This document shows, in pieces, positions 1 to 15,035 of a stretch of 15,035 bases of DNA (the first letter of the stretch is position 1; each line of letters opens with the position of its first letter). Both the position numbers and the translations under genes were made by a program. This DNA comes from Nitrososphaerota archaeon (GTDB taxonomy: Archaea > Thermoproteota > Nitrososphaeria > Nitrososphaerales > UBA57). The notes beneath the pieces were generated by a model. It saw only the letters and a list, made by a program, of their open reading frames with translations, was not told the DNA's origin and searched no databases. The stretch is from assembly GCA_013378385.1 (NCBI GenBank), contig JACAFS010000024.1:1-15035 (forward strand), written 5' to 3'.

Positions 1-741
1 GATGACTTGGGACTTGAACTCAAACACGACTTCAACTTCCTTACTATCGCCCAAATGGGTCCAAGGAAGAACCTCGCCAATAACATCAGGTGGTTCCTCG
101 AAGAGTTCCACGACGACGAAGTTGGACTTGTAGTAAAAACTCACATGAAGAACTGTAGCACCGCCGACGGACAATATTGTCTACAATCTATGAAAGAATT
201 GACAAAAGACTTCCCAGATAGAAAGTGTAGCGTACACTTGCTTCATGGAGACTTATCTCTTGAACAAATGAATTCTCTTTATACTCACCCAAAAATGAAA
301 GGTTTTGTCACTCTAACCCACGGCGAAGGATATGGGCTCCCCATCTTCGAAGCAGCATATCATGGGTTGCCCGTAGTCGCTCCTGGATGGAGCGGACAAA
401 ATGACTTCCTCTATGCTCCCGTGAAAAGCGGCAAGCAAAAGAAAGCGAAGCTACGCCCCTTATTTGCAAAAGTTGATTATACTATAGGGCAAGTTCCACA
501 GGAAGCTGTTTGGGATGGTGTGGTTCAACAAGACTCTGGCTGGTGTTATCCAACCGAGGGCGGAGCAAAGTCTGCCATGAGAGATGTTTATGGCAACCAT
601 TCAAATTATGTTGGAATGTCTAGAAAGCTTAAAAAACATATCTTAACAAACTTTACGGAAGAACAAATGACGACTAAGTTTGCAGAAGCTGTCTTGGGTG
701 AGAAAATTAAGGAAAAAGAATTGGATTTAGTACATGTCTAA
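1..741 (+). CDS. Glycosyltransferase, GT-B fold, family 4-like; C-terminal part only (5' end outside window)
   Basis: Frame 1 is open from base 1; the track start at 7 is only an internal TTG. It carries the C-terminal GT4-type motif HGEGYGLPIFEAAYHGLPVVAPGWSGQNDF (E-x7-E class). Stop TAA at 739-741. Confidence 0.85.
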   Translation, partial: DDLGLELKHDFNFLTIAQMGPRKNLANNIRWFLEEFHDDEVGLVVKTHMKNCSTADGQYCLQSMKELTKDFPDRKCSVHLLHGDLSLEQMNSLYTHPKMKGFVTLTHGEGYGLPIFEAAYHGLPVVAPGWSGQNDFLYAPVKSGKQKKAKLRPLFAKVDYTIGQVPQEAVWDGVVQQDSGWCYPTEGGAKSAMRDVYGNHSNYVGMSRKLKKHILTNFTEEQMTTKFAEAVLGEKIKEKELDLVHV

Positions 742-2365: not shown

Positions 2366-3357
2366 TGTTGCTAATTAGTTTTGGAACAAGACCTGAATAT
2401 ATTAAACTTAAGCCAGTCATTGAATCAATCAAAGGAAAGATTCCTTACAAACTTTTATTTACTGGACAACATGTCGACTTGCTGTCAGAGATAGACGGAG
2501 ACATCCAAGAGCTTGAAATTGAAAATGGAAACAATCGTCTTGACTCCATTGTTCAATCTGTAATGAATAACGAAGATATATTTACAGATATATCGGCTGT
2601 CTTAGTACAAGGAGATACGACTTCAGTATTCGCAGTTGCCTTGGCAGCATTCCATAGAAAGATCAAGATAGTTCATTTAGAAGCTGGATTGCGTACTTGG
2701 AACAAATATCATCCATATCCAGAGGAGTTCAATAGATGCGCCGTCTCTCGTATGGCGGATATTCACCTATGCCCTACTGTCAATTCTGCTTCAAATTTAG
2801 AGAATGAGAGAGTGGATGGAAAAATACATGTCGTAGGAAACACTGTTCTGGATAATCTGGTTGGTATTCCAACTTTATACGACAAACATATTATTGTTAC
2901 AATGCATCGAAGAGAAAATCATGGCAATATGGATACATGGTTTAAAAAAATAAACAATTTGGCTAAAGAATATGACGAATATGAATTCATCATTCCACTC
3001 CATCCGAACCCTAATGTACAAAAACATCGTCACTTGTTGACAAATCTGACAGTTGTCGATTCTATGGAGCACGCGAGTTTTATTAAAAAATTAGCAAGCT
3101 CTCATTTAGTTATTACTGATTCTGGAGGAATTCAGGAAGAATCATCGTTTTTTAAGAAAAAGTGCATTGTCTGCCGCGAGCATACGGAGCGAGGAGAAGG
3201 GCTGGAAGTGTTCTCCTTCTTGGCATCAGAAGAAACGATGGAAGGTATTTTTAGAGATTTAGTCGAAGACAATATTCCGTCTGGCGATTGTCCCTACGGT
3301 GATGGAAAATCCGCTGAAAGAATTGCTAAAATTTTGATTGAGGAGCTTAAGTTTTGA
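2365..3357 (+). CDS. wecB: UDP-N-acetylglucosamine 2-epimerase (Epimerase_2 family, compact 330 aa)
   Basis: SD AAGGGAG at 2353-2359, 5 nt before the ATG. Motifs are collinear with E. coli WecB: FGTRPEYIKLKPV, VQGDTTSVFAVALAAFHRKIKIVHLEAGLRT, HPYPEEFNRCAVSRMADIHLCPT, VTMHRREN, PLHPNPNV, ITDSGGIQEES, PYGDGKSAERI. Hydrolysing versus non-hydrolysing type cannot be decided by eye. Confidence 0.93.
   Translation: MLLISFGTRPEYIKLKPVIESIKGKIPYKLLFTGQHVDLLSEIDGDIQELEIENGNNRLDSIVQSVMNNEDIFTDISAVLVQGDTTSVFAVALAAFHRKIKIVHLEAGLRTWNKYHPYPEEFNRCAVSRMADIHLCPTVNSASNLENERVDGKIHVVGNTVLDNLVGIPTLYDKHIIVTMHRRENHGNMDTWFKKINNLAKEYDEYEFIIPLHPNPNVQKHRHLLTNLTVVDSMEHASFIKKLASSHLVITDSGGIQEESSFFKKKCIVCREHTERGEGLEVFSFLASEETMEGIFRDLVEDNIPSGDCPYGDGKSAERIAKILIEELKF
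3340..3345 (+). promoter_or_regulatory. Shine-Dalgarno GAGGAG serving the TTG start at 3354
   Basis: GAGGAG lies 8 nt upstream of the TTG, which overlaps the epimerase stop as TTGA. The next in-frame ATG is 33 codons downstream and would remove the conserved RFSDGE segment. Confidence 0.6.
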
Positions 3358-4157
3358 AAAAATTTGATACAGCATTTAATAACCTTTTAGGCAAAATATC
3401 TAAAAAAGAGAATTTTGCTTTTACAAGATTCTCAGATGGAGAACTGTTTATAATGCAAAACAAGACAGTTATTTTAGCAAAGGATCATTATGTTACGGGC
3501 GACATTAAAGGTCCAAACATTTATACAAAAGAGGAACAAAAAGAATTCTTACCAGAAAGAGATGGATTTTATAGAGAAAAACTCATAGAGTGTTATAAGC
3601 ACAATCGGGACAACTACTTTAAGGGAATCTGCACAGGGACAGACGCACACGTTGGAACTGAAAATTTTAAATATATGATAGATCTTCATGGAGGAGATCA
3701 CCCAAATTTAACTTTTTCTAATCTGCTGATAAATGCAAATTACAGAAGATTTGTTGAGGAAATGATTCCTTTATTTCAGGATAGGGAAATAGTATATATT
3801 GTTAATGAAAACGCAGATATTTCAAGATTGCCTTTTGACATAAAAAAGACGTTTGAGATTGGAGCCAATTGCATGATTAATGATTATGAGACAGCAGAAA
3901 AGGTTAAAGACTACATAAATGAAAATGATATTAAGAATCACATTTTTCTATGCTCCGCTGCCTCATTGAGTAATTATGTTATATACGAGTGCTTTAAGAA
4001 TAATCAAAATAATACATTTCTGGACATTGGAAGTTGTTTGAATCCTCTTTTGAAATTAGAGGGTTGGAAATATACTAGAGGATATCTTACTCACTATTGG
4101 TTAGGAAAGAATAGTAATTTTGGGACACAGGTTGATGTATGGCAAACTATAGATTGA
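3354..4157 (+). CDS. Hypothetical protein; candidate GT-D (DUF1792-like) glycosyltransferase
   Basis: 267-aa ORF with a TTG start and strong SD. The N-terminal FAFTRFSDGELFIMQN resembles the RFGDGE / D-x-E segment I recall for the roughly 270-aa DUF1792 GT-D fold. I recognised no other family motif. Confidence 0.55.
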   Translation: MKKFDTAFNNLLGKISKKENFAFTRFSDGELFIMQNKTVILAKDHYVTGDIKGPNIYTKEEQKEFLPERDGFYREKLIECYKHNRDNYFKGICTGTDAHVGTENFKYMIDLHGGDHPNLTFSNLLINANYRRFVEEMIPLFQDREIVYIVNENADISRLPFDIKKTFEIGANCMINDYETAEKVKDYINENDIKNHIFLCSAASLSNYVIYECFKNNQNNTFLDIGSCLNPLLKLEGWKYTRGYLTHYWLGKNSNFGTQVDVWQTID

Positions 4158-4531
4158 CGCCAAACGAAGAAAAATACTGGGAATTTATTAGAATCCTCAG
4201 AACCACCGACGGTATCGCCCAAGGTTTTATTAAACAAAATAATATTTCTCCTATAAAACAAAAAGAATATATGCTAAAATATAATCAATGTTTTCGAATA
4301 TGTTTAGATGGAAACATTCCAGTTGGATATGTCGGAATTATTGATGACGACATTCGAGTTGCCACTCACCCTGATCACCAAGGCAAGGGCATAGGATCGT
4401 TTATGATAAATGAAGTAATGAAGGATAGTCCATCTGCCGTCGCAAAAGTAAAGATTGATAACAAAGCAAGCTTAAAATTATTTGAAAAATGTGGTTTTAA
4501 GCTTAAGTATTATTTGTTGGAGAAAGAATGA
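4139..4531 (+). CDS. GNAT-family N-acetyltransferase (small, 130 aa)
   Basis: Acetyl-CoA binding motif A: VATHPDHQGKGIGSFMINEVM (Q/R-x-x-G-x-G/A). C-terminal N-x-x-A: DNKASLKLFEKCGFK. The ATG overlaps the upstream gene by 19 nt. Confidence 0.85.
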   Translation: MANYRLTPNEEKYWEFIRILRTTDGIAQGFIKQNNISPIKQKEYMLKYNQCFRICLDGNIPVGYVGIIDDDIRVATHPDHQGKGIGSFMINEVMKDSPSAVAKVKIDNKASLKLFEKCGFKLKYYLLEKE

Positions 4532-5139
4532 GACACAATCCGTTTAAAATTGTTGAGATGTTCGAAGAAACTGTTGCAGATTACACAGGCGCTCCATATG
4601 CCGTGTCGGTAGATTCAAGCACAAATGCACTATTTTTGTGTTGCAAGTATTTGCAAGTTGAGACTGTGACGATACCAGCTAGGACGTACCTATCGGTTCC
4701 TCAATCTATTATCCACGCTGGCGGCAATATTTTATTTTCTGAAAAAGACTGGAAGGGAATATACCAGTTAGAGCCGTATCCAATTTATGATTCAGCAAAG
4801 AGACTTACATCAGGAATGTATATTCCTGGAAGCTTTATGACGCTTTCTTTTCATATTAAAAAACACCTAAAGATGGGAAAAGGTGGTATGATATTGACTG
4901 ACAATGAGGAAGCAGCAGAATGGTTTTTAAGAGCAAGATACGAAGGGCGCAGCAAAGTAAAGTATCATGAAGATAATATTGAAATATGCGGCTGGAACAT
5001 GTATATGACGCCACAAGAGGCTGCGCATGGACTGGCACTAATGCAGAACTTTCCAGAGCACAATGAGGATTTGCCTGAAAACCCTCCTTATCGTGATTTG
5101 AGAGAGTTTGAATTGTTTAAGAACAAGGTTAAAGAATAA
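4528..5139 (+). CDS. DegT/DnrJ/EryC1/StrS-type PLP-dependent sugar aminotransferase, strongly shortened (203 aa)
   Basis: ATGA overlap with the GNAT gene. Family motifs occur in order: FEETVADYTGAPYAVSVDSSTNALFLC, VTIPARTYLSVPQSIIHAGG, IYDSAKRL (PLP Asp region), LSFHIKKHLKMGKGGMILTDNEEAAEWFLRARYEGRS (Schiff-base Lys region), GWNMYMTPQEAAHGL. The N-terminal approximately 25 aa and the C-terminal small domain of typical members are absent. Confidence 0.8.
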   Translation: MRHNPFKIVEMFEETVADYTGAPYAVSVDSSTNALFLCCKYLQVETVTIPARTYLSVPQSIIHAGGNILFSEKDWKGIYQLEPYPIYDSAKRLTSGMYIPGSFMTLSFHIKKHLKMGKGGMILTDNEEAAEWFLRARYEGRSKVKYHEDNIEICGWNMYMTPQEAAHGLALMQNFPEHNEDLPENPPYRDLREFELFKNKVKE

Positions 5140-5142
5140 TAG

Positions 5143-6030
5143 ATGCTAACATTTACTGAATTAGGCAGTCTTGGCAGGCTGGGAAATCAAATGTTTCAAT
5201 ATGCAGCACTTCGTTCAGCAGGACTTAGACTTGGTTTTGAAACCAAAATTCCTAATCCAGAATTAAAAGGCTGGCACGGGCAAAATTGCATGTTAGGAAA
5301 TTTAAACATTCGCAGTGAATATTTAAGCAATACTGATATGAAAAAAATAAAGTATCAATATATTGAAAAAGATTATATGAACTTTGATAATAAAGTATTT
5401 AGTCTTCCAGACAATACAAATATGCATGGGTTTTTTCAAAGTATTCATTATTTTCAAGATTTTAAAGAAGAAATAATTAAAGAACTAATGCCTAGACAAC
5501 AGTTTTTAGACACTGCTGATAAAAAGTTTCAAGATATAAAGAATGCGAATAATGATTACGAGATAGTATCATTGCATTTGCGGAGAGGTGATAATACTGA
5601 TGGCTCTAATCCAAGTAAAGAATTAAACGAGATGTATGGAAAAAGTGGAGACTTAGAAATGAACAGTTTTTACGGCAAATATTTAGTTGATGCAAAGCAG
5701 CGTTTTAAAAATAAGAAGGTTAAGTTCTTGATTTTTACTGGAGGATCGAGAAGTGATGGAAATTCAAATGAAACTGATATGGAATGGTGTCGAAGAAATT
5801 TTGTTGGTGAAGAATATTTGTTTTCTGAGGAAAACGATGTTATAATAGATTTTTCAATGATATCACGATGTGATCATAATATTGTTTCCCATATTAGTAG
5901 CTTTGGATGGTGGGCGGCGTATTTAAATCAAGGTGAAGGAATCGTAATTGCTCCAAGTAATTACCACCCAGACCGCCCTACGATGGGCTACAGGCAGGGA
6001 TTTTACCCAAAAAAATGGATTTTAGTATGA
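5143..6030 (+). CDS. Alpha-1,2-fucosyltransferase (glycosyltransferase family 11)
   Basis: GT11 motifs are collinear with H. pylori FutC: GRLGNQMFQYAA, HGFFQSIHYFQDF, VSLHLRRGDN, DFSMISRCDHNIVSHISSFGWWAAYL. Confidence 0.9.
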   Translation: MLTFTELGSLGRLGNQMFQYAALRSAGLRLGFETKIPNPELKGWHGQNCMLGNLNIRSEYLSNTDMKKIKYQYIEKDYMNFDNKVFSLPDNTNMHGFFQSIHYFQDFKEEIIKELMPRQQFLDTADKKFQDIKNANNDYEIVSLHLRRGDNTDGSNPSKELNEMYGKSGDLEMNSFYGKYLVDAKQRFKNKKVKFLIFTGGSRSDGNSNETDMEWCRRNFVGEEYLFSEENDVIIDFSMISRCDHNIVSHISSFGWWAAYLNQGEGIVIAPSNYHPDRPTMGYRQGFYPKKWILV

Positions 6031-6716
6031 AGTTAATATTTGACATTGGATATAACAAGGGAGAATTTGCACAAGAATGTTTTCGATTATATCCTGATTG
6101 TAAAGTAGTAGGAGTCGAAGCAAATTTAAGTCTCATTTATAATAATCAATCTACGGAGAGTATGGTACTGCTGCACGCATTGGCGTCTTCTGGAGAAAAT
6201 CAATATGAAGATTTTTATATTGAACCAAATCAGAGCGGTATATCCACTGCGTCAACTATGTTTATGAAGAATTCTAGATTTACAAAAGGTTCTAAGAATT
6301 TAAATCCTAACTCTGCAAGATGGAGTTTGAAGACTAAGGTGAAAACGCTCACGATAGACGACATGGTTAAGACTTACGGAATTCCTGATTTGATAAAAAT
6401 AGATGTAGAGGGGTATGAATATGAAGTTCTCAGAGGACTTACGCAGAAACAAAATAAAATTTGTTTTGAGTGGCATGAGGAAGAATACGATACTTTATTG
6501 AAGATTATTGAACATTTACAAAACTTAGGGTATAATGAATTTGGCATTATTGGATACTTTGACGAAGGAGATGTTTTTGATAATGTCACGTATTCCGACA
6601 AAGGAGATCCGTATTTGCAAGAACCAGAAGAATACTGTTCATGGAAAGATATAGACGTCCAGCGATTAGTGAATCCAGAAAGGCGCGTTAATTACGGCAT
6701 GGTGTTTGCGAAATGA
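6015..6716 (+). CDS. FkbM-family SAM-dependent methyltransferase
   Basis: Motifs IFDIGYNKGEFAQ, VVGVEAN, and the hallmark LIKIDVEGYEYEVLRGL. The start could instead be the in-frame ATG at 6027, which forms an ATGA overlap with the upstream stop. Confidence 0.88.
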   Translation: MDFSMKLIFDIGYNKGEFAQECFRLYPDCKVVGVEANLSLIYNNQSTESMVLLHALASSGENQYEDFYIEPNQSGISTASTMFMKNSRFTKGSKNLNPNSARWSLKTKVKTLTIDDMVKTYGIPDLIKIDVEGYEYEVLRGLTQKQNKICFEWHEEEYDTLLKIIEHLQNLGYNEFGIIGYFDEGDVFDNVTYSDKGDPYLQEPEEYCSWKDIDVQRLVNPERRVNYGMVFAK

Positions 6717-7705
6717 AATTATTTAAAGATTTAACAGGAAACTATCCAGATGTTATTGTGACATATTTTAATTTTGAGAAATATGTTCAAAATCATCCAG
6801 ATTCAAAATCTGGACTTTTTATTGGATATAATTCACAGTTTAATGAAGAATTCTTATCTCAAACATTGGAGGCAGATGAGAGTAGATTGTTTTTTAATGG
6901 AGAACAGCCCTGTGCCTACACCAATCCTGATATCAATATTGGAAACGCTAGTACGGATTTAGAGAACAAGTTTACGGATATTTATACGATTTGTCCTTGC
7001 ACTGCTGATTGGGCAAATGAAATTTATAACAATGGTGAAGAAAAGTTTAAGCCTATTTTATTCCCTATCGATAAATCAAACTTAATTTCTAATTTTGATA
7101 AAAAATATGATGCTATCTTTTACGGCAGTGTCTGTGGGCAAGATCACGTTGAGGCGATAAATGCTATTAGTAAATTCAATCATAAGTTTTTAACTTTAGG
7201 CGTCAATCATTGGCACCCGAACGAGAAATTAGTTAACGTGTCTGGTATTGGAAATCTAATAACAGACGTTAATATTCATACTTTTGAGAAATGGAAAATT
7301 CTTAGTCAGACAAAAGTTGTTCCAATATACAATCAATTGTATTTGCACGATAATCATATTCAGAATATTAAAAAATATGATAATTGGGAAAAGAATCGAG
7401 CATGGAGTCATCTTAATGAAAAACGAGCGCCACAATTGAAGCCTCGTGTAACTGAGGCTGCTCTGTTTAAAATGTTAATGTTAGTAAAACGTGATCCGTG
7501 GAATCTAATAGAATATTGGTATAATCCAAATGAGGATTTTATATATTTTGATTCCAACGATGAGCTAGAAGAATTAATATACGAAACAACGCATAATTGG
7601 GAGAACTATCAACATATTGTTGAAAATGCCTATAAGAAAGCAGTTGACAATTATACAACTGAACCAATTTTAAAGAGAATAATTACACAAGTGAGGAAAA
7701 GATGA
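6713..7705 (+). CDS. Hypothetical protein with CgeB-like (Glyco_trans_1_2-type) C-terminal glycosyltransferase domain
   Basis: ATGA overlap at the start. The C-terminus LKPRVTEAALFKMLMLVKRDPWNLIEYWYNPNEDFIYFDSNDELEELIYETTHNWENYQHIVENAYKKAVDNYT resembles the R-x-F/T-E-A...F..e.v.f.s.eEL pattern of CgeB/DUF3880-type GT-B C-domains. I recognised no motif in the N-terminal approximately 230 aa. Confidence 0.6.
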   Translation: MKLFKDLTGNYPDVIVTYFNFEKYVQNHPDSKSGLFIGYNSQFNEEFLSQTLEADESRLFFNGEQPCAYTNPDINIGNASTDLENKFTDIYTICPCTADWANEIYNNGEEKFKPILFPIDKSNLISNFDKKYDAIFYGSVCGQDHVEAINAISKFNHKFLTLGVNHWHPNEKLVNVSGIGNLITDVNIHTFEKWKILSQTKVVPIYNQLYLHDNHIQNIKKYDNWEKNRAWSHLNEKRAPQLKPRVTEAALFKMLMLVKRDPWNLIEYWYNPNEDFIYFDSNDELEELIYETTHNWENYQHIVENAYKKAVDNYTTEPILKRIITQVRKR

Positions 7706-8652
7706 ACTTTTGGAAAGACAAAAGAATATTAATTACAGGAGCACATGGATTTGTTGGAAATAATCTAATGAAAGTTTTGTCAGAAATGCAAGAAAAGGAA
7801 TTTTTTGAGATTTTATCACCAACAAGGCAAGAATTAGATTTAACAAAACAAGATCAGGTTGAAGATTATTTCAAAACACACACACCAGATATTGTTTTGC
7901 ATCTCGCTGGCAAAGTTGGAGGAATTTTAGCAAACAAGACGAAGCCTGCTGATTTCTTTTATGAAAATATTATGATGGGAACGCTAGTAATGCACTGTGC
8001 TTATAAATATGGGGCAGAAAAGGTAGTAGCATTGGCAGCAGGATGTGGATATCCAAAGCTACTCCCAGTTCCGTACACAGAAGACGACTTTTGGAAAGAT
8101 TTGCCAGATGAAAATTCAATAGGATACTCAATGGCAAAAAAGAATTTAATTATTCAATCTTGGACGTATCGTGAACAGTTTGGGTTCAATTCCGTAGTGC
8201 TTCTTCCAGCAAATCTTTATGGCCCGCATGATAATTTTAATTTAGAAACATCACATGTTGTACCTGCTCTTATAAGGAAATTTATTGAAGCAAAAGAGCG
8301 CGGCGACAACGAGGTGACGGTATGGGGAACTGGAAAGGCGTCTCGTGAGTTTCTGTATTCAGTGGATACAGCCCGCGCAATAATTGACATAGCTGAATCT
8401 GTAAACGAGACTGGTCCATTTAATCTTGGAACAGGGGCAGAGACTTCTATTAAAGAATTGGTGAAAACAATAAAAGAATTGACAGCATTTGAAGGTGAAG
8501 TAGTGTGGGACACATCAAAACCAGATGGACAACCGAGAAGGTTCTACGATATGTCTAAGTTTAAAGATGCTGTGGGATATGTTCCCAGTACAGATATTGA
8601 GACTGGTTTGAAAAGTACAATAAGGTGGTATAATGAAAATAGAAATTCCTAA
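7702..8652 (+). CDS. fcl: GDP-L-fucose synthase (GDP-4-keto-6-deoxy-D-mannose 3,5-epimerase/4-reductase)
   Basis: SD GAGGA at 7693-7697 and an ATGA overlap. Collinear with E. coli Fcl: ILITGAHGFVGNN, HLAGKVGGILANKTKPADFFYENIMMG, AAGCGYPK, YSMAKK, LPANLYGPHDNFNLETSHVVPALIRKF, VWGTGKASREFLY, WDTSKPDGQPRR. Confidence 0.93.
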   Translation: MNFWKDKRILITGAHGFVGNNLMKVLSEMQEKEFFEILSPTRQELDLTKQDQVEDYFKTHTPDIVLHLAGKVGGILANKTKPADFFYENIMMGTLVMHCAYKYGAEKVVALAAGCGYPKLLPVPYTEDDFWKDLPDENSIGYSMAKKNLIIQSWTYREQFGFNSVVLLPANLYGPHDNFNLETSHVVPALIRKFIEAKERGDNEVTVWGTGKASREFLYSVDTARAIIDIAESVNETGPFNLGTGAETSIKELVKTIKELTAFEGEVVWDTSKPDGQPRRFYDMSKFKDAVGYVPSTDIETGLKSTIRWYNENRNS

Positions 8653-9463
8653 GAATATAAATTCACTAAGAATGGATATTGGGACGTCTACAACTGCTCC
8701 CAATACGTCCAACTGGATTAGAGATATTGACGACTGTTTCGTTATTGCAGTCGAACCTGTTTTGAGGAATGTTATAACATCAACAGAGCTTATGAGTCAA
8801 AGTGCTAATTTTAAAAATACGTATTTTATACATGCCGCTGTGGACAATGTTAAAGAACCTGAAGAGGGGCTGATGTACGTAACGAAGGGAAACATAGGAT
8901 GTTCAAGTTTGTATTTGCCACGATCTCATAAAATCGAACACGAAGAGAAAGTTACAAAAGTAAGCTTAAATTATATTTTAGATAAAATCGACTGGAAAAG
9001 TGTTAATTTTGATTATATTGAATATTTTAAAACCGACACGCAAGGTAACGAAATCAATGTATTAAAAAGTATGAAAAAATATTTAAATAAAATTGCGATT
9101 TTAGAGATAGAATGTACAACTTGGGACGAATATCATGACACTCCAAAAGAGGACGAAGTTTTATCTTTTCTAGAAGAAAATAACTTTGATTTTTTAAAAA
9201 ATTGTGAAGATTCTTGGCGTCACGATTACGGAATGTATGTCGATAGAATATTTATTAATAAAAACTTCTTGCATCTTAAGGATAAAATCAAAAAAGACTT
9301 TGCCCCAGATAGTCGTCTTGTGAGTATTCACTCTGAAGGCTCTCCGCAGCGTTCTGTCGATGTTAATTCTTTCGCCATAGCTTTTGGCAACGTGATGATG
9401 GAACGACAAGTGGATTCTAAAGTTAATAATTATTATTCTTTCCCCACCAAGGAATTGTCATGA
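8633..9463 (+). CDS. Probable FkbM-like methyltransferase (divergent)
   Basis: SD AAGGTGG lies just upstream. LRMDIGTSTTAPNTSNW sits at the position of the SAM-binding D-x-G-x-x-x-G. YFKTDTQGNEINVLKSM matches the FkbM K-x-D-x-E/Q-G-x-E-x-x-V-L hallmark. ILEIECT follows. Confidence 0.65.
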   Translation: MKIEIPKNINSLRMDIGTSTTAPNTSNWIRDIDDCFVIAVEPVLRNVITSTELMSQSANFKNTYFIHAAVDNVKEPEEGLMYVTKGNIGCSSLYLPRSHKIEHEEKVTKVSLNYILDKIDWKSVNFDYIEYFKTDTQGNEINVLKSMKKYLNKIAILEIECTTWDEYHDTPKEDEVLSFLEENNFDFLKNCEDSWRHDYGMYVDRIFINKNFLHLKDKIKKDFAPDSRLVSIHSEGSPQRSVDVNSFAIAFGNVMMERQVDSKVNNYYSFPTKELS

Positions 9464-10458
9464 ATTATTGGAAAGATAAAAAGGTTATTATTACTGGAGG
9501 CGCAGGAATGATTGGTTCCGCCCTGTCTTGTGATATGGTAAGGAGAGGAGCAAAAGTAACCGTCATAGATGATTTTTCACGGGGCAGTAGGAAGTCTCTT
9601 GATAGCGTAGCTAGTGCTATTACCATCATTGTGGCTGATTTGCGCGACTATAATTTATGTGTAGAAAATATTATAGATGCTGATATCGTTGTCCACATGG
9701 CATCTAAAGTGGGAGGCATAAAGGTATATACAGATAGTCCATTTTCGATAATGAATGATAATATTTTAATTGATTCAAATGTGATTAAGGCAACAATTCA
9801 TAATAATATTAAGAATTTCTTCTATGCCAGCAGTGCTCATGTATACCCAATTGAGTTGCAGGACAGTATAGAACAAGAGCAAAGCATTGCGGAAGAACAG
9901 GCGTACCCAGCAAATCCACTATTAACATATGGGTGGGCAAAGTTGATTTCCGAGAAACAACTAGTGAGCGCCACCAGCGAGGTTGAGGGTTTTTCAGCCG
10001 CCATCGCACGCTACATTGGTATATATGGAAAAAATCAAGATTATGATTTAGAAACAGGTTCAGTAATACCAGTATTTTCGAATCGCGCTATTCAATATCC
10101 AAAGGTTGACTTTACTATTTGGGGGGATGGAAAAGAAACTCGCTCCTATTGCTACATTGATGATGCAGTGACATGTACTGTGATGATGATGGAGAAATTA
10201 GAAAATAAGAAAGTTGTAGGACCTTATAACGTTGGATCAGACGAAACGATAACTATTGAAGAAATAGCTCAGAAAATAATCAAGATATCGGGTAAAAGCG
10301 TAATAATAGAGTTTGATACTACTAAGAAGGCAAAAATATTATCACAACAATGTGATTGTAGCCGTATTCAAAAGGAGTTGGGTTGGAAAATAACAACATC
10401 ATTTGATGATGGTTTAAAAATAGTGTATAATGATATTAAGATAAGGAGAGAACAATGA
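9460..10458 (+). CDS. Extended-SDR NDP-sugar epimerase/reductase, paralogous to GDP-fucose synthase / GDP-mannose 3,5-epimerase-like
   Basis: ATGA overlap. Motifs: VIITGGAGMIGSAL (Rossmann), HMASKVGGIKV (KVGGI as in the Fcl family), FFYASSAHVYP, YGWAKLISE (Y-x-x-x-K), WGDGKETRSYCYIDD. The N-terminus MNYWKDKKVIITG mirrors the fcl N-terminus MNFWKDKRILITG. Confidence 0.85.
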   Translation: MNYWKDKKVIITGGAGMIGSALSCDMVRRGAKVTVIDDFSRGSRKSLDSVASAITIIVADLRDYNLCVENIIDADIVVHMASKVGGIKVYTDSPFSIMNDNILIDSNVIKATIHNNIKNFFYASSAHVYPIELQDSIEQEQSIAEEQAYPANPLLTYGWAKLISEKQLVSATSEVEGFSAAIARYIGIYGKNQDYDLETGSVIPVFSNRAIQYPKVDFTIWGDGKETRSYCYIDDAVTCTVMMMEKLENKKVVGPYNVGSDETITIEEIAQKIIKISGKSVIIEFDTTKKAKILSQQCDCSRIQKELGWKITTSFDDGLKIVYNDIKIRREQ

Positions 10459-11384
10459 AAGTATTAGTTACAGGCGGCGCTGGTTATATCGGCAGCGAAT
10501 TGGTTCAATATCTGTTGGACGATGGATATGAAGTAGTGGTTATCGATTCCCTGATGTATGACAAGACATCACTACTGCGCTATGCAAATAATCCTAATTT
10601 TTCTTTTGTTAAGGGCGATGTAAGAAACATCCCTTTGATGGAAAAACTAATGTCTGACGTAGACGTTATAATCCCATTGGCTGCACTAGTTGGCTTCCCT
10701 CTTTGCGACGACTATCCTCGCGATGCTCAAGAGATTAATCATGACGTTAATACGTGGATTGCGCAGAACAAAAGTCCAGAACAGAGGGTTATTTATCCTT
10801 GTACGAATTCTGGCTACGGTGTTAGTATCGATGGCTCTGTATGCACAGAAGAGTCTCCGCTTAATCCACTGTCTCTCTATGGACGAACAAAAGTTGCCGC
10901 AGAGAACGAATATAAGAATGTTGAAAACTACGCAACATTCAGATTAGCTACAGTGTTCGGTCCAGGTTCACGTATGCGTTCCGATCTTCTTGTAAATAAT
11001 TTTGTTCTTAGGACATTGCGAGATAGAGTCTTAGTTCTTTATGAATGTGAATTCATGCGAAACTATGTCCATCTTCACGATGTATGTCGTGGATTTATGT
11101 TTATTCTTGACAATTGGGAAGAGTGTAAAAACGAAACGTACAATCTCGGAAATGATGATTTAAATATGAACAAACTTCAGTTGGCTGAGAAAATTAAAGA
11201 ACATCTACCGCTTGAGATTATTCGTGCAGAAATCAATAGTGATCCAGACACTCGCGACTACATCGTAAGTAGCGACAAGATTTATAACAAAGGATACGAA
11301 TGTGAATACGATTTAGATGATGGTATTCGACAGTTAATTACTGCGTTCGCTATTATAGAGAGCCCATGGTTCGCCAATTATTAA
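10455..11384 (+). CDS. NAD-dependent NDP-sugar epimerase/dehydratase (extended SDR), specificity unknown
   Basis: SD AAGGAG at 10443-10448 and an ATGA overlap. Motifs: VLVTGGAGYIGSEL, YGRTKVAAE (Y-x-x-x-K), LATVFGPGSRMRSDLLVNNFV. Confidence 0.88.
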   Translation: MKVLVTGGAGYIGSELVQYLLDDGYEVVVIDSLMYDKTSLLRYANNPNFSFVKGDVRNIPLMEKLMSDVDVIIPLAALVGFPLCDDYPRDAQEINHDVNTWIAQNKSPEQRVIYPCTNSGYGVSIDGSVCTEESPLNPLSLYGRTKVAAENEYKNVENYATFRLATVFGPGSRMRSDLLVNNFVLRTLRDRVLVLYECEFMRNYVHLHDVCRGFMFILDNWEECKNETYNLGNDDLNMNKLQLAEKIKEHLPLEIIRAEINSDPDTRDYIVSSDKIYNKGYECEYDLDDGIRQLITAFAIIESPWFANY

Positions 11385-11385
11385 T

Positions 11386-11715
11386 ATGACATACGTATTT
11401 GACATTGATGGAACGATATGTACCACTACAGATGGAGACTATGCTCTCGCAAAGCCTCTAGAAGCTCGTATAGGCTTGGTAAATAAATTATACGATGAAG
11501 GGCACACAATAATTTTTCAAACCGCTAGAGGCATGGGCAGGAGTGGAAATTCTGTAATGCTGTCATATGAAATGTTTGAAGTAGCCACTAAAAATCAATT
11601 GGATATGTGGGGAGTAAAATACCACTCTTTATTTTTAGGGAAGCCTTCTGGAGATTTTTATATAGATGACAAAGGAATAAAAGATGAAGACTTCTTTACC
11701 AATAAAACACGTTGA
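11386..11715 (+). CDS. Minimal cap-less HAD-superfamily phosphatase (109 aa); candidate sugar-phosphate (GmhB-like role) phosphatase
   Basis: All four HAD motifs occur in order: I = FDIDGTI, II = QTARG, III = GKPSG, IV = YIDDKG. The assigned role is inferred from the adjacent heptose kinase and nucleotidyltransferase genes. Confidence 0.8.
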   Translation: MTYVFDIDGTICTTTDGDYALAKPLEARIGLVNKLYDEGHTIIFQTARGMGRSGNSVMLSYEMFEVATKNQLDMWGVKYHSLFLGKPSGDFYIDDKGIKDEDFFTNKTR

Positions 11716-12043
11716 TAAGGGTTGGGGCTATGAAAAGTGGATAGTAAATTGCGAAGAATATTGTGGAAAACTGCTATTTTTTAATGAAGGGAAACAATGT
11801 TCGTGGCACTATCATAAATTAAAAGATGAGGTTTTCTATTTACAATCTGGAAAAATGATGGTATACTATTCTATAGAGGATAATATAAAGGAAGCAGCAC
11901 AAGTTATTCTGAATCCTGGAGATAACTTTCACGTATTCCGAGGGCTACGACACCGAATGTTAGCACTTGAAGATTCGGAATTATTTGAATTTTCAACAGA
12001 ACATTTTGATAGCGACTCTTACAGACTTCAAAAGGGAGATTGA
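11684..12043 (+). CDS. Cupin-domain protein (type II phosphomannose-isomerase-like single barrel)
   Basis: An AAAGGAA SD lies 7 nt upstream, and the ATG overlaps the HAD gene by 32 nt. Motifs: KGWGYEKW, GKLLFFNEGKQCSWHYHKLKDEVFYLQSG, PGDNFHVFRGLRHR. Paralogous to the partial ORF at 14819. Confidence 0.8.
   Translation: MKTSLPIKHVDKGWGYEKWIVNCEEYCGKLLFFNEGKQCSWHYHKLKDEVFYLQSGKMMVYYSIEDNIKEAAQVILNPGDNFHVFRGLRHRMLALEDSELFEFSTEHFDSDSYRLQKGD
12032..12038 (+). promoter_or_regulatory. Shine-Dalgarno AAGGGAG upstream of ATG 12049
   Basis: A purine-rich SD lies 10 nt before the ATG at 12049. That ATG is in the same frame as track ORF 12109-12453. No comparable SD precedes the TTG at 12109. Confidence 0.5.
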
Positions 12044-12048
12044 GAACA

Positions 12049-12453
12049 ATGAACAGACGATACCTACCAACGCTTTCTGAATTAGTAGATAGATGATCTA
12101 TTGCACAATTGAAAGAAGTTTTTATTTCTGAGCACAAAGAAGAGTACGCTCAAGAAATATCAGACATATGTCATGACATTCAGGGAATCTTGGAAGAAAA
12201 TTCAGAACAAGCGACAGCAGATTTTATACGCGCAGTTGTAGTTCTTTCTCAGATGAATCTTCACATCTGGCACAACGAATCACAAGTTCGCGCTGGAACT
12301 GGAGATGGCAATCTTGAATTGACGCATGGATTGAATGGAATTAGGAATACGGCTAAGAACAAAATTCAAGAAGTCTGCGGAGGGAGAAAGGATTATAAAA
12401 TTGATTGCCTCGCTGCTGATTTTGAAGATTGGGAGATTAGTTGGAATGAATGA
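12049..12453 (+). CDS. Helical protein of unknown function (DUF4254-like), reading frame interrupted by in-frame TGA at 12094-12096 (possible pseudogene, recoding or reinitiation)
   Basis: Translation from ATG 12049 reads MNRRYLPTLSELVDR-TGA-SIAQLKEVFISEHKEEY, in the same frame as the track ORF that starts at TTG 12109. The downstream NLHIWHNESQVR and NGIRNTAKNKIQE fit my recollection of the N..LWH.ED..R and N..RN pattern of DUF4254. Confidence 0.55.
12089..12101. repeat. 13-bp perfect palindrome ATAGATGATCTAT centred on the in-frame TGA
   Basis: Bases 12089-12094 pair with 12096-12101 and the centre is G12095. As RNA this gives a 5-bp stem (AUAGA/UCUAU) with UGA as the triloop. Confidence 0.7.
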
Positions 12454-12745
12454 AAAAAAAACATTCACGGAATACTATCAATATTATTTAACATTACACC
12501 AAAATAAGATAAATAGATGGTTGCACGCTGTGGGACAATGCGTTACATTGGCAACATTGTGGTGCGCCATAACAACTCAAACGTGGATCGTATTGCCACT
12601 GGTGCCCTTTGTAGTATACCCTTTCGCATGGCTTGGGCACTTGTATTTCGAGAAAAACACGCCAGCAGCATGGACACGTCCAATTTGGGCTAAAGCTTGC
12701 GACTGGGTTATGTTGAAAGATATGCTGACAGGAAAGCTAAGGTGA
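12446..12745 (+). CDS. DUF962 (Mpo1/YGL010w-like) small integral membrane protein
   Basis: I prefer the ATG at 12446 (ATGAATGA overlap with the upstream stop) over the track ATG at 12335, which would overlap the previous gene by 119 nt. Motifs: FTEYYQYYLTLHQNKINRWLHAVGQ, a hydrophobic span, then WLGHLYFEKNTPAA. These match the F..Y...H.n..N...H and GH..fE...PA pattern of DUF962. Confidence 0.72.
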   Translation: MNEKKTFTEYYQYYLTLHQNKINRWLHAVGQCVTLATLWCAITTQTWIVLPLVPFVVYPFAWLGHLYFEKNTPAAWTRPIWAKACDWVMLKDMLTGKLR

Positions 12746-13494
12746 GAGTTTTAGTTATTGGCGATAGCTGTAAGGATGTATTTGACTATGGCTTTTGTGA
12801 ACGGCTTGCACCCGCCGCTCCCGTTCCCGTTTTTGTTTCAAGAACAAGGAAAAGTAACAAGGGTATGGCAGGGAACGTGTTCGAAAACTTGATTAATCTT
12901 GGATTTGAATGCGACATCATCACAAATAAGAAAGAGATAGTTAAAACACGTTTTGTTGATGAAGGGACAAATCATATGATTGTGAGAATAGATTCAGGGG
13001 AAGAAAACCTTGAGAGGATAAACAACTTGCACCTCATTCCGTTTGAAAGTTATGATGCAATTGTGATATCAGATTACAACAAGGGATTCGTAACATCAGA
13101 AGACATAGAATATATCTCTAGAAAGCATAGCATTGTTTTTTTAGATACAAAAAAGTTAATTGGTGACTGGGCAAGAGACATCTCATTTATTAAAATAAAT
13201 AAGCCAGAATTTGAAAGAACGAAACACTTGTTTGAGCAGAAAGTGTGGATAAAAGAGAAGCTGATAGTGACACTAGGATCAGAAGGTTGTGTATATTGCG
13301 ACGAAAAGTTTACTGTTGATAAGGTAGAAATAAAGGATTTAACTGGAGCGGGTGATACATTCTTGTCAGCACTTGTTCATAATTATTTAAATACTAAAAA
13401 TATAAAACAATCAATTAAGTTCGCCAACAAGTGTGCGACAATTGTTGTTCAACAAAAGGGAGTTAATGTCATCAATGTCGATAATTTGGACTAA
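12742..13494 (+). CDS. hldA: D-glycero-beta-D-manno-heptose-7-phosphate kinase-like (RfaE/HldE domain I, PfkB family), stand-alone
   Basis: Collinear with the E. coli HldE N-domain: [29 protein letters not shown] vs [81 protein letters not shown]. I prefer the GTG at 12742 (GTGA overlap, AGGAAAG SD 8 nt upstream). The track start, TTG at 12697, remains possible. Confidence 0.9.
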   Translation: [250 protein letters not shown]

Positions 13495-13867
13495 TGGCTG
13501 CTTTGATGTTCTCCATCGAGGGCATTTTGAACTTCTTAAATATGCAAAATCTCTGGGTGAATATCTAATTGTAGGTATTGATTCTGATGCGAAAGTCCGA
13601 AAAGATAAAGGATTGGATAGACCATATAATACCGAGGATGATAGAAAATTTGCTCTCGAAAGTATACGACATGTCGATAAAGTTATAATATTTGATTCCA
13701 GAGACGAACTGTCCAATTTGATAAAAGAATCTCGCCCATCTTGTATGGTAATAGGTTCCGACTGGAGAGGGAAAGATGTCGTCGGACAGGAATACGCACA
13801 AGAACTGTGCTTTTATGATAGAATAGGGAATTACTCAACTACAAACGTTTTAAAGGAGATGAAATGA
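13466..13867 (+). CDS. hldC: D-glycero-beta-D-manno-heptose-1-phosphate adenylyltransferase-like (RfaE/HldE domain II, cytidylyltransferase fold), stand-alone
   Basis: Motifs: [35 protein letters not shown] vs HldE [59 protein letters not shown] vs STTNIIKKI. The start is ATG 13466 or 13475, after AAGGGAG at 13456-13462. The track start at 13433 is a GTG with no SD. Confidence 0.9.
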   Translation: [133 protein letters not shown]

Positions 13868-14814
13868 GATTGGTTGTTATCACTGGTTGCTTAGGTCTTA
13901 TAGGATCTCATGTCACTAAATTGTGTTTAGAAAAGGGATGGAAAGTTTATGGAATTGATAATTGTACTTATGCTGCGAACATTGATTTAATATCAAAGTT
14001 CGAAGAGAACTCAAATTTTACATTTAGAAAACAAGACATATCAAAACTGTCGTATATACCTGATTGCGATTACGTTATAAACATAGCAGCAGAATCGCAT
14101 GTCGGGAACAGCATAGTAAATTCTACCGATTTCATTCAGACAAATATTGTAGGTGTTAAGAATCTTCTCGAAGTAATCCGAAATAAACAAAACAATGTTA
14201 GCGATTTACCTATTTTTTTCCACTTCAGTACAGATGAAGTGTATGGAGACATCTCGTCTGGAGAGCATACTGAAGAAGATTTACTAAAACCAAGTAATCC
14301 GTATTCAGCTTCCAAGGCAGCGGCAGATATGCTTATTTTTGCATGGGCAAGAACGTACGGAATAAAATATAATATTATTAGACCTACTAACAATTATGGC
14401 ATTGGACAGTATCCTGAAAAATTGATACCAATTTCAGTGAAAAACCTGATGAGAGGTAAGAGGATTAAACTTCATGATGAAGGGCATCCAATTCGAAACT
14501 GGTTGCACTCTAGCGACACTGCGACTGCGGTAGTCGCTATAATAGAATCTGGAGCATCGAACGAGATTTTCAATGTATCGAGCGACTTTGAGCAAAAAAA
14601 TATAGATACTGTGAAGAAAATAATACACTCCTATTTCGGTGAAGAGGTGGACATAGAAGAATATATTGACTTAGGGCATAATAGAAAGGGACAAGACGTT
14701 CGTTATGCGTTAAATGATGATAAAATTAAAGCATTAGGGTGGATTCCGAAAATGAATTTTGATAATGAAATTGGACATATTGTAGAAGATTATTCTACTA
14801 AATTTAGGTGGTAA
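13864..14814 (+). CDS. rfbB: NDP-hexose 4,6-dehydratase (dTDP-glucose 4,6-dehydratase RmlB family)
   Basis: SD AAGGAG at 13853-13858 and an ATGA overlap. Collinear with E. coli RfbB: VVITGCLGLIGSHV, NIAAESHVGNSI, IQTNIVGV, FSTDEVYGD, PSNPYSASKAAADML, RPTNNYGIGQYPEKLIP, IRNWLHSSD, RKGQDVRYALNDDKIKALGWIP. The nucleotide and sugar specificity is not determinable by eye. Confidence 0.92.
   Translation: MRLVVITGCLGLIGSHVTKLCLEKGWKVYGIDNCTYAANIDLISKFEENSNFTFRKQDISKLSYIPDCDYVINIAAESHVGNSIVNSTDFIQTNIVGVKNLLEVIRNKQNNVSDLPIFFHFSTDEVYGDISSGEHTEEDLLKPSNPYSASKAAADMLIFAWARTYGIKYNIIRPTNNYGIGQYPEKLIPISVKNLMRGKRIKLHDEGHPIRNWLHSSDTATAVVAIIESGASNEIFNVSSDFEQKNIDTVKKIIHSYFGEEVDIEEYIDLGHNRKGQDVRYALNDDKIKALGWIPKMNFDNEIGHIVEDYSTKFRW
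14806..14811 (+). promoter_or_regulatory. Shine-Dalgarno AGGTGG serving ATG 14819
   Basis: AGGTGG lies 7 nt upstream of the ATG at 14819. It supports the frame-2 ORF that is absent from the track. Confidence 0.55.
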
Positions 14815-14818
14815 GATA

Positions 14819-15035
14819 ATGACTAAAATAGAAAAACCTTGGGGATACGAGATTCATTGGGCAAAAACAGACGGATATGTCGGGAAGCTTCTCTTTATCA
14901 ATGCTGGACATCGCCTCTCAAAACAATATCACGAAGTGAAAGAAGATACTCTCTATGTTCTCAGCGGAGTTCTACCCAACTACGACGAACACGACACGCC
15001 AATGAAAATACTTCCAGGTGAGTCATTTCACGTCA
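14819..15035 (+). CDS. Second cupin-domain protein (PMI type II-like), 5' part only; runs off the window end
   Basis: Hand translation of frame 2 gives 72 codons with no stop: MTKIEKPWGYEIHWAKTDGYVGKLLFINAGHRLSKQYHEVKEDTLYVLSGVLPNYDEHDTPMKILPGESFHV. It shares PWGYE, GKLLF.N.G, YH..K.E..Y.LSG and PG..FHV with the cupin at 11684-12043. The track ORF 14839-15021 is in a different frame. Confidence 0.75.
   Translation, partial: MTKIEKPWGYEIHWAKTDGYVGKLLFINAGHRLSKQYHEVKEDTLYVLSGVLPNYDEHDTPMKILPGESFHV

Follow-up and report, generated by a model that had tools for sequence, protein, structure and literature searches.

The isomerase GmhA, a SIS-fold enzyme that converts sedoheptulose-7-phosphate to heptose-7-phosphate, is to our knowledge regarded as the universal entry to the bacterial heptoses. 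It is a target for antibiotic adjuvants, and the nucleoside diphosphate (NDP) heptoses that arise from its product are agonists of innate immunity. Viruses also encode such pathways: viral NDP-heptose enzymes accompanied by GmhA-type isomerases were shown to be active, as summarised in two later papers (Tang et al., 2024, via PMC11461863 and PMC11573728), and cyanomyophage genomes are said to carry heptose-related lipopolysaccharide (LPS) genes (PMC7378029). One gene cassette has long been annotated in cyanophages, and its likeness, judged by the families of its products, is to an ADP-heptose pathway that lacks both GmhA and GmhB. The DNA stretch considered here, 15,035 nucleotides of contig JACAFS010000024.1 (GenBank assembly GCA_013378385.1, filed under a Nitrososphaerota archaeon; hereafter the window), ends in eight genes that include the same four families, among them a small cupin, cupin1. 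The best explanation of this region, which we hold at roughly even confidence, is that it would encode a viral four-step pathway for the activation of an NDP-manno-heptose in which the cupin acts as the isomerase.

In such a pathway, two of the four enzymes would be replaced by non-orthologous proteins. Cupin1, a putatively metal-dependent enzyme with an active site of the phosphomannose isomerase (PMI) type, would convert a ketose phosphate into a manno-configured aldose phosphate. Its substrate would most likely be sedoheptulose-7-phosphate and its product the 7-phosphate of D-glycero-D-manno-heptose, which is the step usually taken by GmhA. An HldA-like PfkB kinase would place a phosphate onto O1, a minimal HAD phosphatase would take off the terminal phosphate (the GmhB step), and an HldC-like nucleotidyltransferase (NTase) would form the NDP-sugar. 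We infer the activity of the cupin, the identity of the sugar, its anomer and the nucleotide; provided that the cupin is an isomerase, heptose is the somewhat favoured sugar of the window.

NTase, kinase, HAD and cupin genes form a conserved cassette, present in about 15 cultured cyanomyophages and in more than 500 viral contigs. Ocean viromes are very rich in the cupin family, with more than 588 IMG/VR stretches and protein clusters in the thousands, and 35 phage records contain it. Gene neighbourhoods were surveyed in IMG/VR viral loci over 10 kb on either side of an anchor gene, in three sets of 80 loci (anchored on the cupin, on GmhA or on the HldA-like kinase) and one set of 84 (anchored on a helical-bundle gene, the D4254-like gene, discussed below). 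Around the cupin, an HAD gene is found in 70 of the 80 loci, making the phosphatase its tightest partner, an NTase gene in 53, a kinase gene in 51 and all three in 48. The four-gene block of T4-like cyanophages (P-SSM2 PSSM2_309-312, S-CAM1, S-CAM3, S-SM2, S-T4 and others) has 58-72% protein identity to that of the window. The short-chain dehydrogenase/reductase (SDR) that adjoins it there is specifically HldD-like by profile score, reaching 188-210 bits with TIGR02197 (cut-off 274.6) against 35-52 bits for the next family. Of the five ADP-L,D-heptose enzymes, these cyanophages thus encode four, judged by gene content, with the isomerase alone lacking, and in addition an unassigned cupin. This question has been masked by labels in the cyanophage records, where the small HAD gene is called 'phosphoheptose isomerase' (S-CAM1, L001 7071-7394; P-SSM2, L002 7769-8113) and the cupin 'nucleotidyltransferase' or 'cysteine dioxygenase'. 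The family phrog_1238, which the HAD protein of the window matches at 2e-28, carries the same label 'phosphoheptose isomerase', a misnomer. Cellular cassettes exist as well, in the order NusG-NTase-cupin-PfkB-SDR on a deltaproteobacterial contig and HAD-PfkB-cupin on an archaeal one.

No SIS or GmhA gene is present in the window, as judged by Pfam scans of all open reading frames (ORFs) and by three GmhA probes searched in six frames (best E = 0.26); on this point the sequence-only reading, made from the letters of the window before any search, was right. Searches of the phage records with E. coli GmhA, a probe confirmed by NF001628 at 404 bits, found no GmhA in any cyanophage; matches were to Caulobacter phage Cr30 and a few others. 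The 80 viral loci anchored on the HldA-like kinase divide into 37 with the cupin, 16 with GmhA and 27 without either; the two never occur together. Whichever is present mostly lies no more than a few hundred bp from the kinase gene (at most 50 bp for 17 of the 37 with the cupin), and cupin and GmhA loci are interleaved when ranked by kinase similarity. An HldD-like SDR accompanies cupin and kinase in 26 of the 37. Around GmhA, a GHMP (HddA-type) kinase is found in 39 of the 80 loci and a PfkB kinase with an NTase in five, none of which has the cupin. The 80 cupin-anchored loci yield three SIS-probe matches (L108, L182 and L147), only one of which, a weak match in L108 (E=7e-4), falls within the 48 full cassettes. 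None was retained as a cassette with both isomerases: the L108 ORF has no Pfam SIS domain, the L182 match is weak (E=2e-4, about 337 aa) and was not counted, and L147 is a locus of a different context, with a NeuB-type synthase and neither kinase nor NTase.

Conserved residues of the cupin are consistent with a sugar-phosphate isomerase. The alignment shows conserved S40, H42 (Q in cupin2, a second cupin at the end of the window), H44, K47, E49 and H90, and a C-terminal acidic segment, EFSTxHFDxDSxR. The motifs WGxE and S-x-H-x-H-x-x-K-x-E are kept in all 37 divergent cupins of the kinase-anchored loci. In the form S-x-(H/Q)-x-H-x-x-K-x-E, the motif is spaced as in type II PMIs, by comparison with a PF01050 domain found in locus L261, and the positions of the PMI motif serve in phosphate binding, catalysis and zinc binding (PMC9602691). 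L261 is of interest in its own right: its gene at 9552-10304 (as in L253, L259, L260 and L262) encodes a cytidylyltransferase-like NTase fused to a genuine PF01050 PMI domain. Its neighbours are genes for GmhA, for a kinase of the GHMP (HddA) type and for SDRs that are GMD-like and Fcl-like, and the whole is a viral heptose/mannose cluster of another design. Compared with the PDB, the cupin profile matches mannose-6-phosphate isomerase 7zvm (4e-5) and D-lyxose isomerase 2y0o (4.5e-5), and also L-ribose isomerase, quercetinases and the Cap5F cupin (2e-3). Cupin1 itself matches Lyx_isomer (0.009) and phrog_7851 (5e-60). Cupin2 is its divergent paralogue (E=5e-15), with the motif S-x-Q-x-H-x-x-K; the part within the window reaches 14.2 bits (E=0.052) with PF01050 MannoseP_isomer, below the 23.6-bit cut-off, and its tblastn matches are confined to the same 35 phage records that carry the cassette cupin. 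Neither cupin1 nor cupin2 searches matched the cyanophage mannose-6-phosphate isomerase described in PMC9602691. Cupin1 is proposed to be the aldose-ketose isomerase in the GmhA slot.

Several observations weigh against this pathway. The exclusivity of cupin and GmhA has a Fisher p = 1e-5 that is indicative only, and optimistic, since the loci are phylogenetically non-independent. The cupin only weakly resembles sugar isomerases (E about 1e-4 to 1e-5), its alignment to a true PF01050 domain by hhalign has a probability of 38%, and cupin1 has no match to Pfam PF01050 at E<0.1 (cut-off 23.6 bits). Both the kinase (123.8 bits, curated TIGR02198 cut-off 345) and the NTase (115.6 bits, curated TIGR02199 cut-off 181.5) score below the thresholds of the heptose families, and the window has no HldD-like SDR. 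In addition, the best Foldseek match of the cupin1 model (AlphaFold2; predicted local distance difference test score, pLDDT, 90.7) is the cupin domain of CapF (E = 8.7e-9, template modelling score, TM, 0.79), followed by D-lyxose isomerase and also KdgF and PMI. Fold was dropped as a means of sorting the cupin into a class, with hundreds of metal cupins matching equally well and isomerases inseparable from epimerases. The CapF match, together with the profile matches to Cap5F and to WbuC (TIGR04366; 14.4 bits, E=0.025, below the 42-bit cut-off), points to another role, in which the cupin would be a metal-cupin epimerase or isomerase that acts on an NDP-4-keto sugar after the dehydratase, like CapF/WbjC or WbuC, and the host would supply GmhA or the aldose phosphate. 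The position of cupin2 directly after the RmlB-like dehydratase of the window, and the RmlB-like or HldD-like SDR that often adjoins the cupin elsewhere, agree with such a role. We nevertheless consider it improbable. Of the 48 full cassettes, nine lack any extended SDR within 10 kb and in another 21 the nearest is more than 3 kb off, which speaks against an obligatory post-dehydratase role; the closest partner of the cupin is the phosphatase and not an SDR; and strict exclusivity with GmhA would be unexpected for a downstream tailoring enzyme. Supply of heptose by the host is also doubtful in cyanophages, given that cyanobacterial LPS reportedly lacks heptose (PMC4515613).

A further point against a heptose pathway, and one that bears directly on the substrate, comes from a second context of the cupin. 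Cupin loci without kinase or NTase contain a NeuB-type synthase in 19 of 26 cases, usually with a CMP-synthetase; the synthase is found in only 7 of 54 loci with kinase or NTase and in 3 of the 84 D4254-anchored loci, taken as background. In L109 (IMGVR_UViG_3300007512_001945, 9089-10348) the two are truly fused: the cupin part is 79% identical to cupin1, the NeuB part seems to be without the C-terminal domain normally found there, and the gene before it is one for a CMP-sugar synthetase. In L147, L175 and L120, NeuB lies directly upstream of the cupin. A deltaproteobacterial metagenome-assembled genome (L099, PCXA01000009.1, 15286-16812) encodes a NeuB with a C-terminal D-lyxose-isomerase-like cupin; the polysaccharide cluster to which it belongs also contains three genes in the order NTase-cupin-PfkB kinase, downstream of a NusG-like gene. 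NeuB and kinase/NTase contexts interleave on the cupin tree and the cupin scores a median of 206 bits in both, but the HAD of the NeuB loci is a divergent paralogue (77 vs 134 bits). Equal cupin scores and a separate HAD for each context argue that one cupin function feeds two routes. Two routes would strengthen the assignment as a sugar-phosphate isomerase, because the bracket of isomerase and phosphatase follows the same logic as in the pathways to CMP-Kdo (3-deoxy-D-manno-octulosonate) and CMP-KDN (ketodeoxynonulosonic acid), and would make mannose-6-phosphate a serious alternative to heptose-7-phosphate. From its gene contexts, the cupin is not a dedicated heptose enzyme, and the NeuB link suits mannose-6-phosphate as its product better than a heptose; the heptose reading is weakened, because a dedicated sedoheptulose-7-phosphate isomerase would not explain that link. 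Sedoheptulose-7-phosphate and fructose-6-phosphate are alike in their C1-C5 stereochemistry, and the cupin may accept both ketose phosphates. The earlier proposal that a PMI-like cupin replaces GmhA is therefore carried by cassette membership, the 37/16/0 distribution and the PMI motif, and is qualified by the association with NeuB.

The sequence-only reading had also offered a simpler alternative, namely that the cupins are PMIs and that GmhA comes from elsewhere. Modified, this lives on as the main rival, one that we regard as unlikely but take seriously. The cupin would then be a phosphomannose isomerase converting fructose-6-phosphate to mannose-6-phosphate, and the cassette a mutase-independent NDP-mannose route, from mannose-6-phosphate through mannose-1,6-bisphosphate and mannose-1-phosphate to NDP-mannose. 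In the window, the product would pass to the RmlB-like, Fcl-like and GT11 proteins to give a 6-deoxy-L-hexose such as fucose, and in the NeuB contexts the cupin would feed a KDN-9-phosphate-type synthase, followed by the phosphatase. The conserved PMI-type motif and the weak PF01050 match of cupin2 suit this explanation, as do the NeuB-cupin fusion, the NeuB adjacency, the CMP-synthetase and the divergent HAD paralogue of loci devoid of kinase and NTase. So do the Fcl-like (297 bits) and GT11 genes of the window and the presence of an RmlB-like gene at no more than 10 kb from the cupin in 28 of 80 loci. The HldD-like 6-epimerases that occur with cupin and kinase, both in cyanophages and in the 26 loci counted above, are harder to reconcile with it: HldD acts on a secondary alcohol at C6, and mannose has no such group. 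Moreover, kinase and NTase are nearest to heptose enzymes, the cupin next to the kinase stands in for GmhA and not for ManA, and we know of no anomeric PfkB kinase for mannose-6-phosphate.

How far the remaining enzymes support heptose activation differs from one to the next. The kinase belongs to PfkB (2e-20) and scores far better with rfaE_dom_I (TIGR02198) than with ribokinase (54 bits). Its top PDB match is HldA 4e84 (5.6e-10), with which it has the motifs R(I/L)(S/A)P(E/A)APVPV and GAGD in common, and it matches phrog_8133 at 1e-85; it is presumed to be an anomeric kinase on the strength of these matches. The NTase, a member of CTP_transf_like (2e-18) with HxGH and STT motifs, prefers rfaE_dom_II (TIGR02199) to TagD (84 bits), and its PDB matches lie close together: ethanolamine-phosphate cytidylyltransferase at 2e-20, HldC 5x9q at 7e-20 and TagD at 5e-17. 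Promiscuous heptose nucleotidyltransferases of the STTR5 type are characterised by an (F/L)XXGRSTT motif with an Arg before STT (Tang et al., 2024, as summarised in PMC11573728). The motif is absent from the C-terminus of the window NTase, where a Tyr precedes STT and the Gly is one residue off, and it was dropped as a clue to nucleotide specificity. The HAD protein scores 46.5 bits with TIGR01689 (cut-off 162) and 0.012 with HAD-IIIA. In the PDB it matches the 'capsule biosynthesis protein' 9iqw (3e-13) and 1xpj (7e-7), with no match to GmhB or KdsC at E<=10. It holds the GmhB slot and is not a GmhB orthologue, although its function may be analogous.

These relationships leave space for a different substrate altogether. 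Kinase, NTase and HAD might activate a compound without manno configuration, such as a polyol phosphate or a pentose (as in TagD- or ribitol-type capsules), and modification of that compound would fall to the cupin and to the D4254-like and Mpo1-like proteins. The NTase is nearly as close to ethanolamine-phosphate and glycerol-3-phosphate cytidylyltransferases as to HldC, the HAD falls in a Haemophilus 'capsule biosynthesis phosphatase' family and not in GmhB, and all three enzymes are under the heptose-family cut-offs. Such a substrate is nonetheless very improbable, for the kinase is specifically HldA-like (124 vs 54 bits), with N-terminal motifs in common, and this kinase family is accompanied by HldD-like genes as well as by GmhA.

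The RmlB-like gene bears on what may become of the NDP-sugar in the window. Its product is of the 4,6-dehydratase kind, judging from TIGR01181 (299.5 bits, below the cut-off of 365.1) and from the STDE (TDE) and YxxxK (YSASK) motifs of the translation. In many loci of the window's own clade an RmlB-like gene comes after the cassette (28 of 80 loci, within 10 kb), and other clades have an HldD-like gene at that position. The sequence-only reading had proposed that the dehydratase and cupin2 turn the activated heptose, or a hexose, into a 6-deoxy or epimerised derivative. By analogy, the RmlB-like enzyme may convert the cassette product to a 6-deoxy sugar, the one ground for which is this shared position. 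It is equally possible that RmlB-like and Fcl-like proteins form a separate UDP/dTDP-6-deoxyhexose branch, independent of the cassette, because the window has an Fcl-like reductase (NF047922 GDP-L-fucose synthase; 1.5e-88, 297 bits, cut-off 500). The Fcl-like and RmlB-like genes occur in the window together with a gene of the fucosyltransferase family GT11 (5143-6030), and from their families the three could make up a 6-deoxy-L-hexose branch; the window has neither Gmd nor an RmlA-type transferase.

Two further genes lie between cupin and kinase. The first had been called DUF4254-like, an identity that falls short of Pfam significance: the intact protein scores 13.8 bits with PF14063 (E=0.052, cut-off 27), and it belongs instead to an abundant unnamed viral family, here D4254-like. 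Among 34 diverse relatives, one reaches E=0.0015 with PF14063, and P0356 scores 20.7 bits. The sub-threshold matches that recur all map to a single helix, which makes a distant kinship possible. In the literature searched, DUF4254 is named only in passing, in two papers. In the window the D4254-like gene has an in-frame TGA at 12094-12096 (codon 16, with the G at 12095), which is why the ORF was earlier started at 12109. A public contig, L003, identical over 5982 bp but for one base, has TTA (Leu) there and a 134-aa product. Since 13 of 20 genes of the window end in TGA as a normal stop, the copy found here must be a nonsense allele or else reflect a sequencing error; the N-terminus cut off in this way holds nearly invariant residues. 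The family has more than 8000 homologues at >=78% identity and 468 IMG/VR stretches, and no isolated phage has it, including those with the cassette. The protein is predicted to be a four-helix bundle (pLDDT 89.8) with invariant polar residues D14, K22, E36, D43, N70, W74, H93, N96, R99 and K117.

Searches for relatives of the D4254-like protein gave little. Nothing significant was found in Pfam, NCBIfam or PHROGs, the model has no Foldseek match in the PDB at E<=0.001, and its profile matches only dimeric dUTPase 1w2y in the PDB, marginally (E=0.7). In BFVD it resembles domains of giant-virus 'glycosyltransferase' and GNAT proteins (E 3e-3 to 0.1, probability 1.0, TM about 0.6-0.66). Longer homologues have no informative fused domain except for one HNH endonuclease. 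In this protein (P0320, 323 aa), NUMOD3/HNH homing-endonuclease domains lie upstream of the D4254-like domain, an arrangement that suggests insertion of a homing endonuclease at a highly conserved gene. P0305 and P0356-P0358 (about 610 aa) contain the domain in two copies, and many relatives have N-terminal extensions of 40-120 residues and variable sequence.

The second gene encodes a member of the Mpo1-like/DUF962 family (99.8 bits with PF06127, cut-off 24, over profile positions 2-95 of 95) and is also called in the contig identical to the window. It follows the D4254-like gene or lies between kinase and NTase. Both genes had been taken for members of the pathway, partly because of their tight coupling, but every junction of the window is equally tight (-32 to +5 nt). 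As to membership, they are frequent companions of the cassette, and cyanophage cassettes lack both. The 84 D4254-anchored loci include a kinase in 39 (directly downstream in roughly 17), an NTase in 31, an Mpo1-like gene in 26, a cupin in 20, an HAD in 18 and GmhA in none, and roughly 25 have no cassette gene within 10 kb. Conversely, the 80 cupin-anchored loci have the D4254-like gene in 15 and the Mpo1-like gene in 9. Participation of the two genes in the pathway is thus weakly supported. From these distributions the two genes appear as optional genes of glycan islands and not as core pathway steps; an obligatory role is unlikely, and their functional context is that of viral glycan islands generally and not of the heptose module specifically. 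A separate observation concerns L004/L005, which carry at 1-1228 a eukaryote-type phosphomannomutase gene (PF03332) paired with one for a 170-aa cytidylyltransferase-like protein, about 9 kb upstream of D4254-like and Mpo1-like genes in a locus without kinase, HAD or cupin. The pair was considered as a clue to the NTase substrate and dropped, its NTase being 24% identical to that of the window.

The coordinates of the genes are collected in the table. The whole 15-kb window consists of 21 genes, all on the + strand in one array with a GC content of ~0.36, and all 19 junctions among the 20 complete genes fall within the spacing given above. Hidden Markov model searches, PDB profiles and gene calls bear out the eight genes of the region in the order first described, as well as the 29-nt overlap of the unfused kinase and NTase genes. 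Upstream lie glycosyltransferase genes (including GT2, GT11, GT-D-like and Glyco_trans_1_2 types), two FkbM methyltransferases, a UDP-GlcNAc 2-epimerase, a GNAT gene, a short DegT-like ORF and three extended SDRs, one of them Fcl-like. The product of 734-2365 (543 aa) is weakly GT1-like in its N-terminal half and GT2 in its C-terminal half, and may be a two-domain glycosyltransferase. The DegT/DnrJ-type aminotransferase ORF at 4528-5139, directly preceded by the GNAT acetyltransferase gene, encodes 203 aa that align with the middle part of a 360-position Pfam profile, so that it looks truncated or split. Isolated phages have no DNA nearly identical to positions 1-11385, and their DNA matches to the HAD, cupin and kinase genes reach only 60-80%. 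The RmlB-like protein was found on only two contigs, one of 5982 bp and one of 10-20 kb that is probably the source of the window itself. Metagenomic relatives with 75-92% identity number in the thousands for the D4254-like protein and likewise for cupin1, and each occurs in hundreds of IMG/VR viral contigs of up to 358 kb; PhoH, PD-(D/E)XK and HNH genes are neighbours on related contigs. The best reading of the window is that of a glycan island belonging to a large marine phage that has not been cultured.

Table. Genes of the proposed activation region and one context gene, with positions in the window.
Feature	Position	Strand	Best match or relation
HAD phosphatase (109 aa, minimal cap-less, DxDGT motif)	11386..11715	+	TIGR01689 EcbF-BcbF 3.3e-12
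Cupin1 (119 aa, metal-site, PMI-like motif)	11684..12043	+	Cupin_2 1e-7
D4254-like gene (134 aa if intact; predicted four-helix bundle)	12049..12453	+	unnamed viral family
Mpo1-like/DUF962 small membrane protein (99 aa)	12446..12745	+	PF06127 9.9e-29
HldA-like PfkB kinase (250 aa, GTG start overlapping preceding stop)	12742..13494	+	rfaE_dom_I 7.7e-36
HldC-like cytidylyltransferase-fold NTase (133 aa)	13466..13867	+	rfaE_dom_II 1.6e-33
RmlB-like NDP-sugar 4,6-dehydratase (316 aa)	13864..14814	+	TIGR01181 2.5e-89
Cupin2 (first 72 aa only; runs past window end)	14819..15035	+	36% identity to cupin1
Fcl-like 3,5-epimerase/4-reductase (context gene, outside the region)	7702..8652	+	NF047922

If the proposed role of the cupin is true, it would be a clear non-orthologous displacement in a textbook pathway; no paper was found in the literature searched that ties a cupin to ADP-heptose or to sedoheptulose-7-phosphate isomerisation. 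It would also explain a self-sufficient heptose route in cyanophages whose hosts' LPS is reportedly devoid of heptose, and would correct about 20 years of mislabelled annotations of cyanophage HAD and cupin genes. The association of the cupin with NeuB-type synthases hints that viruses may activate sugars by a modular design of wider reach, and the D4254-like family is among the most conserved unannotated genes of viral glycan islands. A broader and decidedly more tentative proposal is that there is a second class of isomerases, without the SIS fold, of which the cupin would be the first member and which would convert ketose phosphates (sedoheptulose-7-phosphate, possibly fructose-6-phosphate) to manno-aldose phosphates. 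Together with the small HAD it might form a portable bracket of isomerase and phosphatase in marine viruses and some bacteria and archaea, into which either an anomeric kinase and an NTase (for an NDP-heptose) or a NeuB-type synthase and a CMP-synthetase (for a KDN-like acid) are placed, and the D4254-like protein might be a further, hitherto unrecognised enzyme of viral glycan islands.

Compared with known systems, the region combines features of several. In the tailoring of GDP-6-deoxy-heptose in Campylobacter and Yersinia, too, a cupin comes after a dehydratase and reductases of the SDR family are close by, a likeness already drawn, for Campylobacter, in the sequence-only reading. Those dehydratases are GMD-like, the cupins are RmlC-like and metal-free, and the enzymes act on GDP-alpha-heptose made via a GHMP kinase; at the level of genes, the window differs in its RmlB-like dehydratase and in a cupin that is a metal-site, PMI-like paralogue. 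Type II PMI (PF01050) and the D-lyxose/D-mannose isomerase cupins have the same single metal site and N-terminal WGxE. The PF01050 motif S-x-(Q/H)-x-H-x-x-(R/K)-x-E has identical spacing, and both families have an acidic-rich C-terminal segment that ends in R, but in the cassette cupin Q gives way to H and R to K. The CMP-Kdo and CMP-KDN pathways have the same bracket of isomerase and phosphatase as the cupin loci without kinase and NTase; the window has no NeuB, and in some of these loci NeuB lacks its C-terminal domain and is fused to the cupin. The ADP-heptose (beta) pathway follows the same four-step logic as that proposed here, with kinase and NTase closest to rfaE domains I and II and separate as in HldA and HldC, and orthologous cassettes have an HldD-like SDR. 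In place of the SIS-fold GmhA and of GmhB, the window has a PMI-like cupin and a TIGR01689-type HAD; its kinase is short (250 aa), scores fall below curated cut-offs, and an RmlB-like gene stands instead of HldD. Closest of all is the cyanomyophage set (P-SSM2 PSSM2_309-313, S-CAM1, S-SM2 and SynMITS9220M01), in which the same four families are adjacent and the cupin is 58-72% identical. There the order is NTase-kinase-HAD-cupin, against HAD-cupin-X-Mpo1-kinase-NTase in the window, and the cyanophages have an HldD-like SDR but no D4254-like, Mpo1-like or RmlB-like genes.

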